IMG/VR virus record: IMGVR_UViG_3300045988_146550
Location: 1,207 to 33,206 of that record
DNA length: 32,000 bases
Origin: a virus
Reading direction: 5' to 3' (one strand)
The translations under genes and the position numbers were made by a program. Positions 13,321-19,547 of the stretch are shown here, in pieces. Position 1 is the stretch's first letter, and each line of letters opens with the position of its first letter. A model generated the notes under the pieces. It made no database searches. It was not told the DNA's origin and was given only the letters and a program-made list of their open reading frames with translations.

Positions 13321-14220
13321 CTACTTTCTTTTCGCATAACTCAATGATTCAAGATTCTGCTTTTTCATTTTCCTTGTTGTACGAACATAGATTCTTGTAG
13401 TTTCTAAACTAGAATGTCCCAAAATGTCAGCCAATTCAGCAATGGCATTTTCACCATTCTGCATCAAATACTGAATTGCAAACAAATGTCTGAATGCATG
13501 AGGATGTACTTTACCAAGCTTAATCCCTCTGCATTTACCAGCAATCATCTTTAAGTCTCTAGATAACACACGAGCGTTTACAGGGCTTTTCTTATCAGAA
13601 GATGTAAATATATACCCTTCTTCAATTTTGTTGTCCTTGCAGTATTTAAGGAGTTCTCGTCGCAAGTCTGAACGTAGGATGATTCCTCTACCTTTTCCTT
13701 TGTTCATAACATACACATTATCATCCGTTACTGCTTCTACAGTGAAGAACTGTAGTTCACTCAAACGAATGCCCGTATACCCAAATACCTTCATGATCTC
13801 GTATAAGTCCATACGATTGATTTCTCGGGCTTTTTTCAATAGTCTTTGAAATTCATTAGGTTCTAGAATATCATCCAAAGAATCGTCTTTCTGGACTCTT
13901 ACGTTCTTCAATAAATTCTTTGAATAATATTTTTTAAGTTTCAGGAAATTGAAATCATCATCTGAATCTATGATTTCTGCATATTTAATAAATTTATTAA
14001 TTATCACAATATAGTTGTTTACTGTACTGATTTTATAATCATGCAGCAGTTTATCTTTAACACCAACTATATCGGACTTTTGTATTTCACCATCAGGCAA
14101 TGAGTCAACAAACAAAGTAGCAACATGCTTGTATTTACGAATGGTATTCTTACTTTTCTCATCCGCTGTTTCTTCTTCAATAAACCCGTCAATTTTTGTT
14201 TGTAACTCATCCTTAGTCAT
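13321..14220 (-). CDS. Tyrosine recombinase, XerC/XerD-like (299 aa)
   Basis: Catalytic signature present: TGIRLSEL (R), HPHAFRHLFA (H-x-x-R), LGHSSLETTRIYV (H...Y). N-terminal SAM-like domain and no arm-binding domain. Confidence 0.85.
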   Translation of the reverse strand: MTKDELQTKIDGFIEEETADEKSKNTIRKYKHVATLFVDSLPDGEIQKSDIVGVKDKLLHDYKISTVNNYIVIINKFIKYAEIIDSDDDFNFLKLKKYYSKNLLKNVRVQKDDSLDDILEPNEFQRLLKKAREINRMDLYEIMKVFGYTGIRLSELQFFTVEAVTDDNVYVMNKGKGRGIILRSDLRRELLKYCKDNKIEEGYIFTSSDKKSPVNARVLSRDLKMIAGKCRGIKLGKVHPHAFRHLFAIQYLMQNGENAIAELADILGHSSLETTRIYVRTTRKMKKQNLESLSYAKRK

Positions 14221-15037: not shown

Positions 15038-15439
15038 ATGGATGATAATATCGGTTTTAGAATAAATAAAGTTAGATCACAATTGAACTTAAGCATGGAA
15101 AAATTCGGCAATAAAATCGGTATTTCTAAAAGTTCTGTGAATAAATTAGAAAAAGGAATTAACCAGCCTTCAGAACAAACTATAAAATTAATTTGTAGTG
15201 TATATAACGTTGACTATGCATGGTTAACTCAAGGTGTTGGAGAAGATATTTTTATTTCCATTCCTGAATCAAAGATAGATCAAATCATGGAAGATTATGG
15301 CTTAACCGAAAAAGAGCGACCACTTGTTCGAGGATATTTGGAAGCGCCCGAAGAAGTCAGACAACAAGTTGCCGATTATTTAAATTCAATTGTCGAAAGA
15401 GAAATAGCAAGAAGAGAAAAAGAAAAGAACAACAAATAG
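15038..15439 (+). CDS. XRE/cI-type phage repressor (HTH_3) without a peptidase S24 domain
   Basis: Contains IGFRINKVRSQLNLSMEKFGNKIGISKSSVNKLEKGINQPSEQTIKLICSVYNVDYAWL. Only 133 aa, with a short acidic/basic helical C-terminus. Divergent from the early operon. Confidence 0.8.
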   Translation: MDDNIGFRINKVRSQLNLSMEKFGNKIGISKSSVNKLEKGINQPSEQTIKLICSVYNVDYAWLTQGVGEDIFISIPESKIDQIMEDYGLTEKERPLVRGYLEAPEEVRQQVADYLNSIVEREIARREKEKNNK

Positions 15440-15525: not shown

Positions 15526-16533
15526 ATGAAATTATTCAAAACTATTGGGATTTCTGTGCTTGCACTATCTATGTGTACAGGATGTACAAGCTACAAAGAA
15601 AGAGTTAAAGCTGATAACCAAATAGAGGAAATCACCGACAGAGAATCAGATGATTTAAAAGCTCAATCTTATGAGCTTGGTGATTTTACTATTTATTTAC
15701 CTAAATATTTTTCTAACACTAATGAAGAATCGGATGCATTATCTTTCAAAACATCTGATGAAAATTGCCAATATCCTATTTTATCAATTACAACAAATAG
15801 TGGAAATTTGACAGAAGATTCTGTAAAAGAGTTTATGAGTTATCAAGAAAATGACAACGACGGTTTTATAGAAGATGTTGACGATAGCTATGAAGTCAAA
15901 AATTTTCATACTAAAAATGGAAAAAGTTATTATTATTCTGAATTATCAGGCAATATGAACCTGGCAAAAGATGGAGAGGAAAATAACGATGCCGCAGATT
16001 TGTTCTATTATTTTATACCAAATAATAGAAGAACGTCTTACATGATTCTATTGATGATTCAACCAAAAGGGCATTTGAAGTACAATTATGAATCAGAATT
16101 TGACGAAATAGTTAGAAATATCAGTATTAATGATGAGGAAGATGAACAAAATAGTGAAAATGCAAGTTCTTCTTCAAGTAATTCATCTTCTTCAACAACT
16201 ACAACTACTCCAAGTACAAGTTCAAATGTATCAACTCCATCTCCAACAATGGGTGAAAAAAATGCGCTAGGATCTGCAAGAGAATATTTAAGCATTTCTG
16301 CATTCTCTTATTCAGGATTAATTCATCAACTAGAATATGAAGGTTACTCAACAGAAGAAGCCGCTTATGCAGCTGATAACTGCAACGCAAACTGGAACGA
16401 GCAGGCCGCTAAATCAGCAAAAGAATATTTAGACATATCGTCATTCTCTCGACAAGGATTAATAGATCAATTAATTTATGAAGGTTATACACAAGAACAA
16501 GCGGAATACGGTGCAACACAAAACGGGTATTAA
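15526..16533 (+). CDS. ltp: Ltp-family surface lipoprotein (superinfection exclusion) with an extra N-terminal domain
   Basis: Signal peptide plus Cys (VLALSMCTGC) and a Ser/Thr-rich linker (aa 213-240). Two C-terminal repeats, ALGSAREYLSISAFSYSGLIHQLEYEGYSTEEAAYAADN and AAKSAKEYLDISSFSRQGLIDQLIYEGYTQEQAEYGA, are typical of TP-J34 Ltp-type domains. Confidence 0.8.
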   Translation: MKLFKTIGISVLALSMCTGCTSYKERVKADNQIEEITDRESDDLKAQSYELGDFTIYLPKYFSNTNEESDALSFKTSDENCQYPILSITTNSGNLTEDSVKEFMSYQENDNDGFIEDVDDSYEVKNFHTKNGKSYYYSELSGNMNLAKDGEENNDAADLFYYFIPNNRRTSYMILLMIQPKGHLKYNYESEFDEIVRNISINDEEDEQNSENASSSSSNSSSSTTTTTPSTSSNVSTPSPTMGEKNALGSAREYLSISAFSYSGLIHQLEYEGYSTEEAAYAADNCNANWNEQAAKSAKEYLDISSFSRQGLIDQLIYEGYTQEQAEYGATQNGY

Positions 16534-16539
16534 AAGAAT

Positions 16540-16569
16540 AAGCTAGGGTAAATTCCCTAGCTTTTATTT
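16540..16569 (+). terminator. Rho-independent terminator of ltp
   Basis: AAGCTAGGG (16540-16548), loop taaatt, CCCTAGCTT (16555-16563), then TTATTT. Confidence 0.75.
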
Positions 16570-16706
16570 CCTCTTTGCCAACTACTTCATCAGACCAAAT
16601 TTTAGTCTTAATAGCATTCAAATCGTTCTGCAATTGAGATTCTCTTTTTTATTCAATTTAGTATTCTTCTTTTAAATTTGCGCGTAAATACCTATAGGTA
16701 TTAGTG

Positions 16707-16844
16707 TTATTCATTTTTAGATGATAACAGCAGTCTTTGTGCATGATTATATAGAATTTGCAAATCATCCACGTTAAGTTTTTCTGCTAGGATAATTAAT
16801 TTCGTTATCCATAAATCCCTTTCCATAAGATCATCCCTTTCCAT
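16707..16844 (-). CDS. Possible small ORF (45 aa, or 39 aa from a second ATG), not in track
   Basis: ATGGAAAGGGAT occurs twice in frame (ATGs at 16844 and 16826), and the first copy supplies an AAAGGGA SD for the second ATG. Followed by a 16-bp perfect palindrome AATACCTATAGGTATT (16687-16702). No homology recognised. Confidence 0.25.
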   Translation of the reverse strand: MERDDLMERDLWITKLIILAEKLNVDDLQILYNHAQRLLLSSKNE

Positions 16845-16993
16845 TCATTTTCTATGAATAAAAAGAAAAACGTTTTCCTTATTCTAATATAATAAGTCTT
16901 AAATTCTGTATGTCAATGTCTGTTTTGCATTAAATTGTACAAATATAATACTAAAAAGTGCAAGTGGTTATATATCACATTATCAGTATTGAA

Positions 16994-17010
16994 TTTTTTT
17001 CGGGGGGGGG
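16994..17010. repeat. Homopolymer pair T7-C-G9 in an intergenic region
   Basis: gaaTTTTTTTcGGGGGGGGGtagaattttt. A G9 run is conspicuous in DNA this AT-rich. GAATTTTT flanks it on both sides. Confidence 0.9.
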
Positions 17011-17180
17011 TAGAATTTTTAATGTACTTTTGGTTATATTATTAACTAATTTTGTTTTGTAAATATTTATTAATATTTTGCATTTTTCATTACTCTTTTT
17101 AAAATGTGATGTTATTATTCATGTGTACATGATAAATATTTTAGGCTTTTTTCTATTTCCTCAAGAAAAGATTAGCAGAG

Positions 17181-17231
17181 AATGAAAAACAGATAGTGGT
17201 GTTGAGCAGCATACACTATCTGTTTTTCATT
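17181..17231. terminator. Long perfect hairpin (18-bp stem, 15-nt loop), a bidirectional terminator candidate
   Basis: AATGAAAAACAGATAGTG (17181-17198) pairs with CACTATCTGTTTTTCATT (17214-17231). The right arm overlaps the last codons of the 57-aa ORF. Confidence 0.6.
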
Positions 17232-17389
17232 TTATATTCATTCATAACTTGTTTAATATCTTCACCAACTATATTCCAATCATTAGATAATGCTATATAG
17301 TCGTCATAAAACGATCCTGTTTTAATTTCAATTTTCGGAAATAAGTTTATACTTTTAATTCCTTTTATTACATAATCAATTATCTTCAT
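17216..17389 (-). CDS. Small protein (57 aa) immediately downstream of the PBECR-like gene, a candidate immunity/antitoxin partner, not in track
   Basis: SD AGAGGTG precedes the ATG at 17389, 15 nt after the upstream stop. Sequence MKIIDYVIKGIKSINLFPKIEIKTGSFYDDYIALSNDWNIVGEDIKQVMNEYKMKNR. Confidence 0.5.
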   Translation of the reverse strand: MKIIDYVIKGIKSINLFPKIEIKTGSFYDDYIALSNDWNIVGEDIKQVMNEYKMKNR

Positions 17390-17404
17390 ACACACCTCTA
17401 ACTA

Positions 17405-17773
17405 TTATAATTTATTTGTTTTTAATTTATTGTATTTAGTTTCATTTATTGGATAAATCGTTTTAATCTTTAATATTGGCCCTGAACTTATTCTAACTGC
17501 AACTAGTACATTGTCTTCCATTTTCTTAACAATTTGTAAGCTGTTATTCTTTTTGTCCTCCGATATAAAATCTGGATTAGAAACAATCAATGATAAATCT
17601 CTGAAAACAATATCTAAAAACAAAGGATCAGTAAAATCTTCTCTGTGTCTTTCTATATGATTTATTCTGTCATCATACAAAGCAATAGTTTTATCTTTAT
17701 ATGATTCATCTAATCCAAACGTTTCTATGTATTCATCTGTTATTTTATATAACATCTTTTTTGATTTATTCAT
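17405..17773 (-). CDS. PBECR-like (Barnase/EndoU/ColicinE5-D/RelE-like) predicted nuclease, stand-alone (122 aa)
   Basis: Start placed at the ATG at 17773, 7 nt after GGGAGA (the track uses an upstream TTG). The motif layout DDRINHIERHREDF...IVSNPDFISEDKKNNSLQIVKKMEDNVLVAVRIS...IKTIYPI resembles stand-alone PBECR domains. By eye only. Confidence 0.45.
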   Translation of the reverse strand: MNKSKKMLYKITDEYIETFGLDESYKDKTIALYDDRINHIERHREDFTDPLFLDIVFRDLSLIVSNPDFISEDKKNNSLQIVKKMEDNVLVAVRISSGPILKIKTIYPINETKYNKLKTNKL

Positions 17774-17799
17774 GATTATATCTCCCAAATATAAAGTAA

Positions 17800-17824
17800 A
17801 GGCCTTGTTGCATTAACAAGGCCT
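17800..17824 (-). terminator. Perfect 10-bp hairpin after the small membrane ORF
   Basis: AGGCCTTGTT, loop gcatt, AACAAGGCCT. It overlaps the ORF stop codon. The downstream tail on the minus strand is only moderately T-rich. Confidence 0.5.
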
Positions 17825-18041
17825 ACAATTTGTGTATATGGTGGGGCGATAGTTCCCACATCTCATCAGAATTTACATTCCTACCCTTGACACTTTCGTG
17901 CGCGATAGCCATCTTTCTATCCTCACATACACAATCAGAATGTTTTCTTTCAGCCAATAGACCTATCCAGTTCGAGGTGAACACAAACAACCCTACGGAA
18001 GCTATAAGCACTATGCATGCTGGAACACAATACTTAATCAT
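17823..18041 (-). CDS. Possible small membrane protein (72 aa) in a locally higher-GC islet
   Basis: N-terminal TM helix CVPACIVLIASVGLFVFTSNWIGLL. Weak SD. A hairpin follows directly. A mirror plus-strand ORF of the same length also exists, so coding status is uncertain. Confidence 0.35.
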   Translation of the reverse strand: MIKYCVPACIVLIASVGLFVFTSNWIGLLAERKHSDCVCEDRKMAIAHESVKGRNVNSDEMWELSPHHIHKL

Positions 18042-18186
18042 AGCTTAACAGAACCTAATCTGTGACAAACAAGATAGAGCAGCAAGCTTATCTTCATCCG
18101 TATATTACATTATTTGCTAGTGAATTTCAATCAAATTTCTCCTATTTTGTACTTTTTTGTAACATTGTGTAATCTAATATCACTTT

Positions 18187-19284
18187 TTATAACAACTTAT
18201 TCATCATATCTACAATACTCTTATCTTTTGTATCAAACCAGTGTGCATATGTATTGTGCAATGTTTCAACTGTATCTCCTAAGCGTTTGGCTATGTCAAA
18301 ATCTGAGAATCCAGCTCCTGCCATGTTATTAATTAGAAATGATGCGTGTGAATGTCTAAAATCATGAATTCTTATTTTAGGCAATCCATCATCTTTTTCT
18401 TTTGCCTTGTTATAAGCTTCATCAAATCTTCTTTGTACCGTCTGAGGTGATATTGGTTTATAGTATCCAAACACAAATTTATCTTTTGTGAAATCATCCC
18501 ATTTAGAACATTCTAGAAACCATTCACGAAGCATTTTAGACAAAGTATTAGGCATTGTGATAGTTCTATAGCTATTGTTTGTTTTTGGCGGTGTAAGCCA
18601 TTTATTAGGGTCTTTCTCTTTGTATCTATATGTTTTGTTGATGTCTATAGTTTGTTTTCTAAAATCAATGTCCTTCCATTGTAGGGCCATGGCTTCACCT
18701 TTTCGTAATCCCATATAGAATAAAACAGAATAAAAACATTTCATCATTTGTTCACCCACTTCTTCAATGAATAAATCAAAATCATATTGCTGCCATATTG
18801 TCATTTCTTCTTTTCTTTCATTAAGTCTTAGATCACGTTTCACATATGTCATTGGATTTGATTGGATGTATTCAGAAGTAACACCAAATTTATATAGCTT
18901 ATTTAAAAAGAAATATATTCTTGATACATATGCCTTTGAATATTTCTCATCAAATTTGTTGATCAAGTTTTGCATTTGCCTTTTATCTAAAAAATCAATA
19001 TCTTTCATTTCCTTAGAAAGAACATTGTACAAATATTCATCTGATTTTAAAGTTGATTCTTTTACGTACTTTTTGTTGTACTCCTTAAAAGCTTTATATA
19101 GTCTATCAAAATTCATATCTAATGGAAGCATAAAGAAATCTTTTCTGAATTCAACCTCAGCTTTCTGTGCTTCCCATTTAGAATCAAAACCACGCTTACG
19201 ATATCTCTTTATACATTTACCATCCTTATATATTTTTCCGGCAAACATATATTTTCCTGTCTTCTTATCTAATTCCACTGCCAT
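18187..19284 (-). CDS. int: Phage tyrosine integrase with an N-terminal arm-type DNA-binding domain
   Basis: N-terminus MAVELDKKTGKYMFAGKIYKDGKCIKRYRKRGFDSKWEAQKAE looks like an Arm-DBD. Catalytic residues present: YMGLRKGEA (R), IRIHDFRHSHASFLI (H-x-x-R), LHNTYAHW (Y). SD AGAGGG. Confidence 0.9.
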   Translation of the reverse strand: MAVELDKKTGKYMFAGKIYKDGKCIKRYRKRGFDSKWEAQKAEVEFRKDFFMLPLDMNFDRLYKAFKEYNKKYVKESTLKSDEYLYNVLSKEMKDIDFLDKRQMQNLINKFDEKYSKAYVSRIYFFLNKLYKFGVTSEYIQSNPMTYVKRDLRLNERKEEMTIWQQYDFDLFIEEVGEQMMKCFYSVLFYMGLRKGEAMALQWKDIDFRKQTIDINKTYRYKEKDPNKWLTPPKTNNSYRTITMPNTLSKMLREWFLECSKWDDFTKDKFVFGYYKPISPQTVQRRFDEAYNKAKEKDDGLPKIRIHDFRHSHASFLINNMAGAGFSDFDIAKRLGDTVETLHNTYAHWFDTKDKSIVDMMNKLL

Positions 19285-19306
19285 TTTTGTGCCCTCTTAT
19301 ATGTCC

Positions 19307-19335
19307 ATAATATGCAAAAAAGGGGTATAATTCAA
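19307..19335 (-). promoter_or_regulatory. Putative int promoter TTGAAT-N17-TATTAT
   Basis: On the minus strand, -35 is at 19335-19330 and -10 at 19312-19307. The inverted arm-type repeat GGGGTATA (19322-19329) lies inside the spacer. Confidence 0.45.
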
Positions 19336-19371
19336 TATTTTAATATCAAATTATACCCCAATATACCCCAA
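19322..19371. repeat. Arm-type integrase-binding repeat cluster
   Basis: TATACCCCAA is tandemly repeated (19352-19361 and 19362-19371), with an inverted copy GGGGTATA at 19322-19329. A further TACCCCAA lies at 19511-19518 on the other side of the core. Confidence 0.55.
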
Positions 19372-19372
19372 T

Positions 19373-19402
19373 GCAAATAAAAAAGCCTTTAAATAAAGGC
19401 TT
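19373..19402 (-). terminator. Rho-independent terminator directly after the tRNA-like att core
   Basis: AAGCCTTT (19383-19390), loop aaat, AAAGGCTT (19395-19402). On the minus strand it is followed by TTTTTTATTT. Confidence 0.7.
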
Positions 19403-19411
19403 AAATTTCAA

Positions 19412-19430
19412 TGGAGCAGATGAGGGGATT
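19412..19430 (-). other. att core: 19-nt copy of a tRNA 3' end (T-loop end, T-stem, acceptor strand, discriminator U, CCA)
   Basis: The minus strand reads AAT-CCCCT-CATCTGC-T-CCA, i.e. end of T-loop, 3' T-stem, 3' acceptor strand, discriminator, CCA. No D, anticodon or 5' acceptor arm upstream, so this is a fragment and not a gene. A 14-bp palindrome ATATCAATTGATAT lies at 19444-19457. Confidence 0.6.
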
Positions 19431-19547
19431 ATATAAATACCTCATATCAATTGATATTTGATGTTATTTACATCATTATCTACGTGTTTTGATAGCACTT
19501 TGTTGTTTTGTACCCCAAAATGTACCTCACTGCTTCACGCAAGAAAG

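Follow-up and report, generated by a model that had tools for sequence, protein, structure and literature searches.

This work describes an accessory locus of a temperate phage in which PBECR3, a small predicted endoribonuclease (RNase), is encoded beside a structured RNA of the skipping-rope family. The locus lies in a 32,000-nucleotide (nt) stretch of the IMG/VR virus record IMGVR_UViG_3300045988_146550 (positions 1,207 to 33,206 of that record), referred to here as the window and numbered from its first letter. We consider it very probable that the skipping-rope RNA and PBECR3 form a functional RNA-RNase pair. The further reading, that the pair is a type III-like toxin-antitoxin (TA) or abortive-infection module whose RNA holds the RNase inactive, falls a little short of an even chance, its toxicity, RNA inhibition, and defense role being inferred by analogy. 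A first-pass annotation of the same DNA had instead paired PBECR3 with the product of an adjacent open reading frame (ORF) of 57 amino acids (aa). By the comparisons below, the conserved partner of PBECR3 is the skipping-rope RNA, which that annotation missed and which lies 59 nt upstream of PBECR3, outside the coordinates it covered. Solo PBECR domains (Iyer et al. 2017) and the skipping-rope motif (Weinberg et al. 2017) were already known; the present comparisons add the link between them.

The pairing rests on a survey in which PBECR3 loci were fetched by protein similarity alone, with no reference to the RNA. Loci came from tblastn searches of phage records, exact-protein look-ups, GTDB genomes, metagenomes, and two independent IMG/VR scans, and skipping-rope RNAs near PBECR3 were detected by Rfam or by pattern matching. 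In every evaluable locus, a skipping-rope RNA was found 18 to 105 nt from PBECR3. When the proteins were clustered at 90% identity, 25 of 26 clusters had the RNA beside PBECR3, the remaining one being a contig that stops 30 nt past the PBECR3 gene; at 60% identity, all 17 clusters had it. For the reverse search, a skipping-rope sequence pattern matched at least 119 IMG/VR stretches; among the matches listed, 42 had a PBECR3 ORF within 81 nt, 51 had adequate flanks and no PBECR3 in the fetched stretch, and 26 lay at the edge of the locus. Because all protein-fetched clusters carry the RNA while many RNA matches lack PBECR3, the dependence is one-sided: in the loci examined, the RNA often occurs without PBECR3, and PBECR3 never occurs without the RNA.

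These counts bear directly on what Iyer et al. 2017 (PMC5512222) predicted for PBECR domains, by which PBECR3 would be an offensive phage RNase used in host take-over, anti-CRISPR activity, or counter-defense, and its adjacency to the RNA would reflect shared cassette boundaries. Skipping-rope RNAs do mark the 3' ends of many phage cassettes, but chance sharing of a boundary sits badly with an RNA in 17/17 protein clusters and with the occurrence of the pair outside prophages, between housekeeping genes. Moreover, the solo PBECR3 in the window is not encoded next to virion genes, which argues against a packaged, injected effector. On balance, we regard this explanation as distinctly improbable.

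Several loci in the survey have features of their own. Two skipping-rope copies occur near one PBECR3 in L166 (716–798 and 1505–1587, both on the opposite strand) and in L168 (1795–1873 and 1902–1981). In Streptococcus suis phages, PBECR3 (L001 3950–4363, KX077890; also L002) carries the GenBank label 'spbA protein' and sits where toxin morons of streptococcal phages classically do, with the lysin gene on one side and the attachment (att) site on the other; the skipping-rope RNA follows it by 18 nt.

In the direction of transcription, the module in the window reads integrase, drum RNA, skipping-rope RNA, intrinsic terminator, ribosome-binding site (RBS) and PBECR3, 57-aa gene, and long hairpin. 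The integrase, both RNAs, and both small protein genes are all on the minus strand. The features are as follows:

18187–19284, minus strand: tyrosine integrase, 365 aa (Pfam Phage_integrase, 69.5 bits, plus Arm-DNA-bind_4)
17935–18046, minus strand: drum RNA, Rfam RF02958 (cmscan, 74.8 bits against a gathering score of 43; E 1.6e-12; model positions 1–112, full-length)
17833–17931, minus strand: skipping-rope RNA, Rfam RF02924 (cmscan, 57.9 bits against a gathering score of 36.7; E 1.5e-11; full-length)
17790–17824, minus strand: intrinsic terminator (10-bp GC-rich stem at 17800–17824 and a T-rich tail; terminator scan and fold)
17405–17773, minus strand: stand-alone PBECR3, 122 aa, predicted metal-independent endoRNase of the Barnase/EndoU/ColicinE5-D/RelE-like (BECR) fold (Pfam PF18812)
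17216–17389, minus strand: gene for a 57-aa protein of the PHROG 27385 family (kept frame, in-frame indels; ratio of nonsynonymous to synonymous polymorphism, pN/pS, 0.33)
17181–17231, no strand assigned: 18-bp perfect inverted repeat with a 15-nt loop (arms 17181–17198 and 17214–17231)

The skipping-rope and drum motifs were defined by Weinberg et al. 2017 (PMC5737381), who reported no self-cleavage and gave no function or hypothesis. For skipping-rope, an orphan motif whose structure they judged 'sophisticated', a riboswitch or leader role was considered improbable. Measured against these motifs, both RNAs of the window score above the Rfam thresholds and are then followed by a terminator. 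The drum RNA exceeds its gathering score across the full model (74.8 versus 43 bits), is separated by 3 nt from the skipping-rope RNA downstream of it, and, of the PBECR3 loci scanned, is confined to those of this phage family. The skipping-rope RNA is likewise above gathering with a terminator after it, and PBECR3-linked copies display compensatory changes in 18 of 27 base pairs. The RBS of PBECR3 (GGGAGA, 7 nt before the ATG) follows the terminator stem by about 15 nt. No promoter-like site was found between the terminator and the PBECR3 ATG, and no tandem repeats of the ToxI type were found between the integrase and PBECR3.

The clue to the RNAs came from protein databases: the N-terminal extensions of two PBECR3 homologs and a small ORF upstream of a third share a peptide with an apparent 72-aa ORF at 17823–18041. 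The shared peptide pointed to a conserved nucleotide element and not to a gene, and Rfam then resolved this element as drum plus skipping-rope. The apparent 72-aa ORF (minus strand) was rejected as a gene, as it corresponds to translated drum and skipping-rope RNAs. Similarly, false N-terminal extensions of database PBECR3 proteins (e.g., 'MWELSPHQIH'; P0010 and P0061) are ORF calls that run through the RNA (compare L003 1290–1373). A hammerhead ribozyme, suspected from CUGAUGAG and GAAA motifs in 17850–17900, was also discarded: Rfam assigns this segment to skipping-rope, for which Weinberg et al. report no self-cleavage.

By profile matches and alignment, the 122-aa protein is a PBECR3/BECR-type predicted RNase in which the predicted catalytic residues are kept. 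The first-pass annotation had called it a PBECR-like predicted RNase from the motifs RINHIERHREDF and NPDFISEDKKNNSLQIVKK, both of which are present, and comparison with Pfam profiles bears out this assignment: Pfam PF18812 (PBECR3) matches with 52.5 bits (E 5.6e-14; gathering score, 30), with protein residues 9–115 aligned to profile positions 5–114 of 115. The only other Pfam family matched is PBECR2, more weakly, at 29.8 bits; PADLOC, which carries an AbiQ model, gave no match, and NCBIfam gave nothing meaningful. The predicted active site comprises R42-H43 and K104-T105, a combination of a His with a C-terminal Thr/Ser that has been reported for PBECR and colicin-D-like RNases. Across 48 aligned relatives, H43 never varies (48/48), position 42 is K/R in 41, T/S105 is kept in 47, and P67 and P108 hardly vary. 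The gene has a pN/pS of 0.05 within the phage family, i.e., strong purifying selection. The AlphaFold model has a predicted local distance difference test score (pLDDT) of 97.2, and its top Foldseek matches in the PDB are RelE/HigB/BrnT/ParE toxins, although these are weak (best E 0.017; TM scores of 0.45–0.56; none with E ≤ 0.001). On the invariant H43, T/S105 in 47/48 sequences, and the low pN/pS, the RNase looks active; the nearest folds, by these weak matches, are those of RelE/HigB toxins.

PBECR3 of this kind is characteristically small. An exhaustive phmmer search of 1.84 billion cluster representatives returned 101 relatives, of which 100 are about 54–194 aa long. The statement of the first-pass annotation that such domains are normally embedded in giant polyvalent proteins is thus untrue of this subfamily, and solo phage versions of PBECR had already been noted by Iyer et al. 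2017 (PMC5512222). A tblastn search with the divergent PBECR3 protein P0074 gave no match among deposited phages.

The position of the RNA relative to the gene follows two layouts. In the first, seen in this phage family and in Erysipelotrichaceae chromosomal copies, the RNA is upstream, and a terminator stands between the RNA and the PBECR3 start codon in 8/8 loci, with stems that are unrelated in sequence. Promoter-like sites precede the RNA in L003 and L021, and L007 has a perfect 12/12 site. In the second layout, which is that of most phage lineages, the RNA is downstream of PBECR3 with a terminator after it. Here, 15 of the 20 distinct loci have a sigma-70 promoter that agrees with the consensus at 11 or more of 12 positions and whose end lies 12–38 nt ahead of the RNA, against a background of 0.0046 per search window. 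In several of these loci (L040, L102, L144, and others), the TGA stop codon of PBECR3 lies inside the TTGACA −35 hexamer of the RNA promoter. In four loci (L163, L164, L166, and L065), the RNA is on the strand opposite PBECR3. As read from these arrangements, both layouts should give the RNA in large excess over the RNase mRNA, and the variation in side and strand relative to the gene argues for an RNA that acts in trans.

The same geometry was weighed for a cis-acting explanation, in which skipping-rope would be a regulatory or autoregulatory leader, or a 3' untranslated region, of the PBECR3 mRNA with no separate role in trans. No linked RNA lies farther than about 105 nt from PBECR3, gene and RNA usually share a strand, and in the window the RNA comes first, followed by a terminator that could serve as an attenuator. 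However, an element of this type would be expected to keep one side and strand relative to the gene, whereas skipping-rope varies in both, has its own promoter when downstream, and frequently occurs with no PBECR3 at all; riboswitch and leader roles were also judged improbable by Weinberg et al. (PMC5737381). We therefore assign cis regulation little probability and, together with coincidental adjacency, rank it as less likely than the RNA-processing alternative discussed below.

Erysipelotrichaceae genomes also carry the minimal unit (RNA, terminator, and PBECR3) by itself, set between housekeeping genes at different sites, e.g., between recA and rny or by a PcrA-type helicase gene; in L003–L006, it is beside a sucrose operon. 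By analogy, this is how TA modules typically sit.

The first-pass annotation saw a fit to a toxin plus immunity/antitoxin pair, or to an abortive-infection pair; as a type II-style system, this would make PBECR3 the toxin and the 57-aa protein its antitoxin or immunity factor. The annotation's description of the small ORF is accurate, in that the ORF begins 15 nt past the PBECR3 stop, at 17216–17389 on the minus strand, with its own RBS (GAGG, 5 nt before the ATG). The ORF had also been described as unannotated, which requires amendment, as public metagenome gene calls include it. Because the reading frame is kept in at least 47 clusters at 77–96% identity, with in-frame indels and a pN/pS of 0.33, the 57-aa ORF is, on these codon-level signals, a real gene. 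All of these homologs sit in a single prophage family. The protein matches PHROG 27385, an uncharacterized family, and no other; its AlphaFold model is poor (pLDDT 62). Searches with PADLOC and NCBIfam gave nothing meaningful, and no antitoxin-like domain was found.

Conservation of the 57-aa gene beside PBECR3 is where the two-protein explanation fails. No 57-aa homolog was found next to PBECR3 in the other lineages (29–66% identity, prophages and chromosomes), which include the 64–66% identical chromosomal copies, five Erysipelotrichaceae genomes, the S. suis phages, and other IMG/VR phages. In the S. suis phages, PBECR3 lies directly between the lysin gene and the skipping-rope RNA at the prophage end, leaving no room for a partner ORF. 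Conversely, the sister phages L016–L019 keep the 57-aa gene and the skipping-rope RNA and lack PBECR3. In these phages, about 115 nt of unrelated sequence that includes a terminator (L016 5860–5975) stand in place of the segment of terminator plus PBECR3. The limits of the replaced segment coincide exactly with the 3' end of the skipping-rope RNA and with the 57-aa RBS, which suggests that cassettes are exchanged as modules at the RNA boundary. In two other sister phages that share the same integrase, Ltp, and repressor genes (L080 and L108), a 71-aa homolog of the 57-aa protein (hhalign probability 97.8%) precedes a DUF2335 membrane protein. The cassette in these phages (L080 3891–4701; L108 1–726) consists of the 71-aa homolog, DUF2335, a skipping-rope RNA, and a terminator, without PBECR3 and without a drum RNA.

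Within the phage family, the two adjacent proteins also diverge at different rates. Identity is 98–100% for PBECR3 versus 84–98% for the 57-aa protein, and constraint shifts sharply across the 15 nt between them, from a pN/pS of 0.05 to 0.33.

Adjacent and co-oriented genes only 15 nt apart, each with its own RBS, are what a toxin and its protein antitoxin would look like; small protein immunity partners are usual for BECR toxins, and the 57-aa gene persists without the RNase, as orphan antitoxins do. Nonetheless, a partner that is confined to one phage family and absent from other PBECR3 lineages, including chromosomal copies 64–66% identical, is hard to reconcile with such a pair, as are the S. 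suis phages in which no ORF fits, the homolog that pairs with a DUF2335 protein instead, the unequal pN/pS (0.33 versus 0.05) and identity (84–98% versus 98–100%), and the lack of an antitoxin-like domain. We consider the two-protein explanation very improbable, the least favored of those weighed here. The 57-aa gene is probably co-transcribed downstream of PBECR3, and judging by these comparisons it is not the conserved partner; it would be a small accessory gene that shares the transcript and is otherwise independent.

The hairpin that closes the locus is as the first-pass annotation described it, a perfect 18-bp inverted repeat (arms 17181–17198 and 17214–17231; 18 nt each, 100% complementary, 15-nt loop). 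As RNA, it folds with −25.7 kcal/mol (z = −5.0), and none of 200 shuffled sequences folds as well. The 5' arm is formed by the final five codons and the stop of the 57-aa ORF. The hairpin is kept in relatives, where K54 variants have one mismatch and no compensating change. A terminator scan did not call it, and no canonical U-tract was found on the minus strand. Given that absence, we describe the hairpin as probably the terminator of the module transcript, whose 3' end it would mark.

The skipping-rope RNAs that stand apart from PBECR3, referred to here as orphans, have the same conserved core as the PBECR3-linked copies, and no alignment columns were found that discriminate the two groups. 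They usually lie 11–60 nt after a same-strand gene, and these genes are of many kinds: tail fiber, portal, integrase, Doc/Fic, a CptN homolog (PDB 4rmo, E 7e-22), Abi_2, Gp49/HigB-like, SocA_Panacea, and DUF1828/1829. One second protein family taking the place of PBECR3 beside the orphans was looked for and rejected on account of this heterogeneity, and the suspicion of a ToxN-like protein in L071 was not borne out.

The orphans often have toxin or abortive-infection genes as neighbors. Four lie 11–170 nt after such genes (the CptN type III homolog, Doc/Fic, Abi_2, and SocA_Panacea), and one lies 155 nt before a Gp49/HigB-like gene; the loci are L083 1103–1684, L057 9444–9836, L125 2423–2899, L120 287–658, and L145 2167–3054. 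Skipping-rope may mark defense cassettes more generally.

The orphans are the ground on which the main rival explanation stands. Here, PBECR3 would be a dedicated processing or maturation endonuclease of skipping-rope (in the window perhaps of drum as well), as Cas6 is for CRISPR RNA, and the RNA would be the effector and PBECR3 no toxin. Such a helper enzyme would explain the orphan RNAs equally well. The one-sided dependence is what is expected of a protein that is useless without the RNA and an RNA that works alone; the RNA core is the same with and without PBECR3; drum and skipping-rope, 3 nt apart, form one apparent precursor; and orphan RNAs occur at the 3' ends of many kinds of transcripts. 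Set against this, most PBECR3-linked RNAs have their own promoter and terminator and hence would need little processing, and a terminator before the RNase gene leaves the enzyme in short supply compared with the RNA it is supposed to process. In addition, the isolated chromosomal modules resemble selfish or defense islands, and the nearest folds are those of toxins. We consider this explanation unlikely, while treating it as the most serious alternative to RNA-restrained toxicity.

The functional pair, and restraint of the RNase by the RNA as its mechanism, are favored here because of the one-sided dependence, the two layouts that each favor RNA excess, the autonomy of the minimal module, and the accessory site next to the Ltp gene. 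Under this proposal, the RNA would be made in excess; in the window, most transcripts would stop at the terminator, and the RNase gene would be reached by read-through only. The RNA would bind the RNase and keep it inactive in the lysogen. A drop in RNA supply or its titration, e.g., by another infecting phage, would free the RNase to cleave cellular RNA, and growth of the infected cell would then stop. Relatives in the colicin-like BECR group cut tRNA.

As a tentative extension, which we hold to be less likely than not, skipping-rope may be a non-repetitive RNA antitoxin for solo PBECR3, and the two may represent a new type III-like family with a BECR toxin in Firmicutes prophages and chromosomes, the orphan RNAs being decoys by which phages escape. 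Such decoys would parallel pseudo-ToxI, which lets a phage escape ToxIN.

A number of points weigh against a restrained toxin. Toxicity, RNA binding, and phage defense are attributed to the module by inference from known systems. The RNA has no tandem repeat array, the toxin is outside ToxN/CptN/TenpN, and PADLOC has no match for the PBECR3 protein. No convincing promoter for the RNAs was found in the window, where the best candidate matches 9/12 positions. Skipping-rope RNAs with the same core follow tail-fiber, portal, and many other genes, and for this reason the RNA may act in its own right, PBECR3 being its helper and not its restrained target. Finally, the proposal of Iyer et al. 2017 (PMC5512222) casts PBECR domains as offensive or anti-CRISPR RNases of phages and not as restrained toxins.

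Known type III TA systems (ToxIN, CptIN, and TenpIN) encode an endoRNase after its RNA partner, with a terminator between them that keeps the RNA in excess. They reside on mobile elements and prophages and act in abortive infection, and orphan antitoxin-like RNAs occur in phages. The locus in the window resembles them in having a terminator (17800–17824) between RNA and PBECR3 and no promoter-like site before the ATG, an order found in 8/8 RNA-upstream loci. In contrast, the putative toxin here has a predicted BECR fold (PBECR3) with no match to the ToxN/AbiQ, CptN, or TenpN families in Pfam or PADLOC; the antitoxin candidate is a single structured RNA of 80–100 nt, whereas type III systems use a tandem direct repeat array; and in most PBECR3 lineages the RNA is downstream with its own promoter. 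For this locus, processing of the RNA and inhibition by it are putative. On the families compared, the locus belongs to no described type III family.

The abiF RNA motif reportedly stems from the same 2017 survey as skipping-rope. A direct precedent is AbiF-RCd22 of the Clostridioides difficile phi027 prophage (bioRxiv 10.1101/2025.04.15.648962), in which the order is promoter, structured non-repeat RNA with two hairpin motifs, Rho-independent terminator, RBS, and toxin gene. There, no promoter separates RNA and gene, expression is by read-through, and the RNA neutralizes the toxin by direct binding in cis and in trans. Both modules are prophage encoded and have the order of RNA, terminator, RBS, and (here putative) toxin gene in common; however, the AbiF toxin is an Abi_2/HEPN protein where PBECR3 has a predicted BECR fold, the RNA families differ, and AbiF-RCd22 has been tested experimentally while the PBECR3 module is known from computational analysis.

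Other BECR proteins offer partial likenesses. The PBECR domains of polyvalent proteins and MuF fusions (PMC5512222) share Pfam PF18812 with the protein described here, which differs in being stand-alone, in an accessory locus not among virion genes, and always beside a structured RNA; an RNA partner is not mentioned by Iyer et al. 2017 (PMC5512222). RelBE/HigBA and the colicin D/E5 and contact-dependent inhibition (CDI) pairs are likewise small BECR/RelE-fold RNases with a partner next door, and they are the nearest (weak) structural matches. Their partner is a protein, however, and the one small protein encoded beside PBECR3 here does not accompany it across lineages. BECR RNases were surveyed in 2026, with discussion of protein immunity partners only. 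In the literature searched, which did not extend to the supplementary text of Weinberg et al. 2017, no paper was found to bring PBECR and skipping-rope together.

The first-pass annotation placed the locus between the integrase and the lysogeny genes, as a moron, and this placement agrees with the gene order. The integrase (18187–19284) lies on one side, and on the other side are two lysogeny-related genes:

15526–16533: Ltp-type superinfection-exclusion lipoprotein, on the far side of the locus from the integrase
15038–15439: helix-turn-helix (HTH) repressor, on the far side of the locus from the integrase

The site is thus an integrase-proximal accessory position adjoining the Ltp superinfection-exclusion gene. 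Because holin and CHAP endolysin genes are directly upstream of the integrase on the same strand, the window is taken as the lysis-to-integrase junction of an excised or circular temperate phage. Transcription running through the integrase may feed the drum and skipping-rope RNAs. In gut metagenome contigs, relatives are integrated beside tRNA genes next to thrS. The nearest genomic PBECR3 homologs are from Erysipelotrichaceae, which for this reason is the likely host family of the phage. A megablast search of 16500–19500 against deposited phages found no close DNA relatives.

Two further observations concern the surrounding DNA. A second tyrosine recombinase of 299 aa (13321–14220, minus strand; Phage_integrase, 69 bits) is encoded inside the early/replication region and is kept in all relatives, which is unusual where a phage already has an integrase. 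No convincing gene was seen in the AT-rich DNA of about 620 nt (16564–17180) that separates the Ltp terminator from the hairpin; this stretch contains a G8 run near 17003–17011, a perfect 12-nt direct repeat (16815–16826 and 16833–16844), and a promoter-like site matching 11/12 positions on the minus strand (16916–16889).

For annotation, the lesson of this locus is that RNA genes have been translated as if they were protein-coding, in the apparent 72-aa ORF and in the N-terminal extensions that some PBECR3 database entries carry. For biology, two open questions, one about an orphan RNA and one about a predicted RNase family, become a single question that can be put to the RNase expressed with versus without the RNA. 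If the proposal is true, PBECR3 would be the first BECR/RelE-fold toxin restrained by RNA rather than by protein. It would add a prophage-borne defense family to gut Firmicutes and to Streptococcus suis phages, and it would explain why phages carry the RNA alone.

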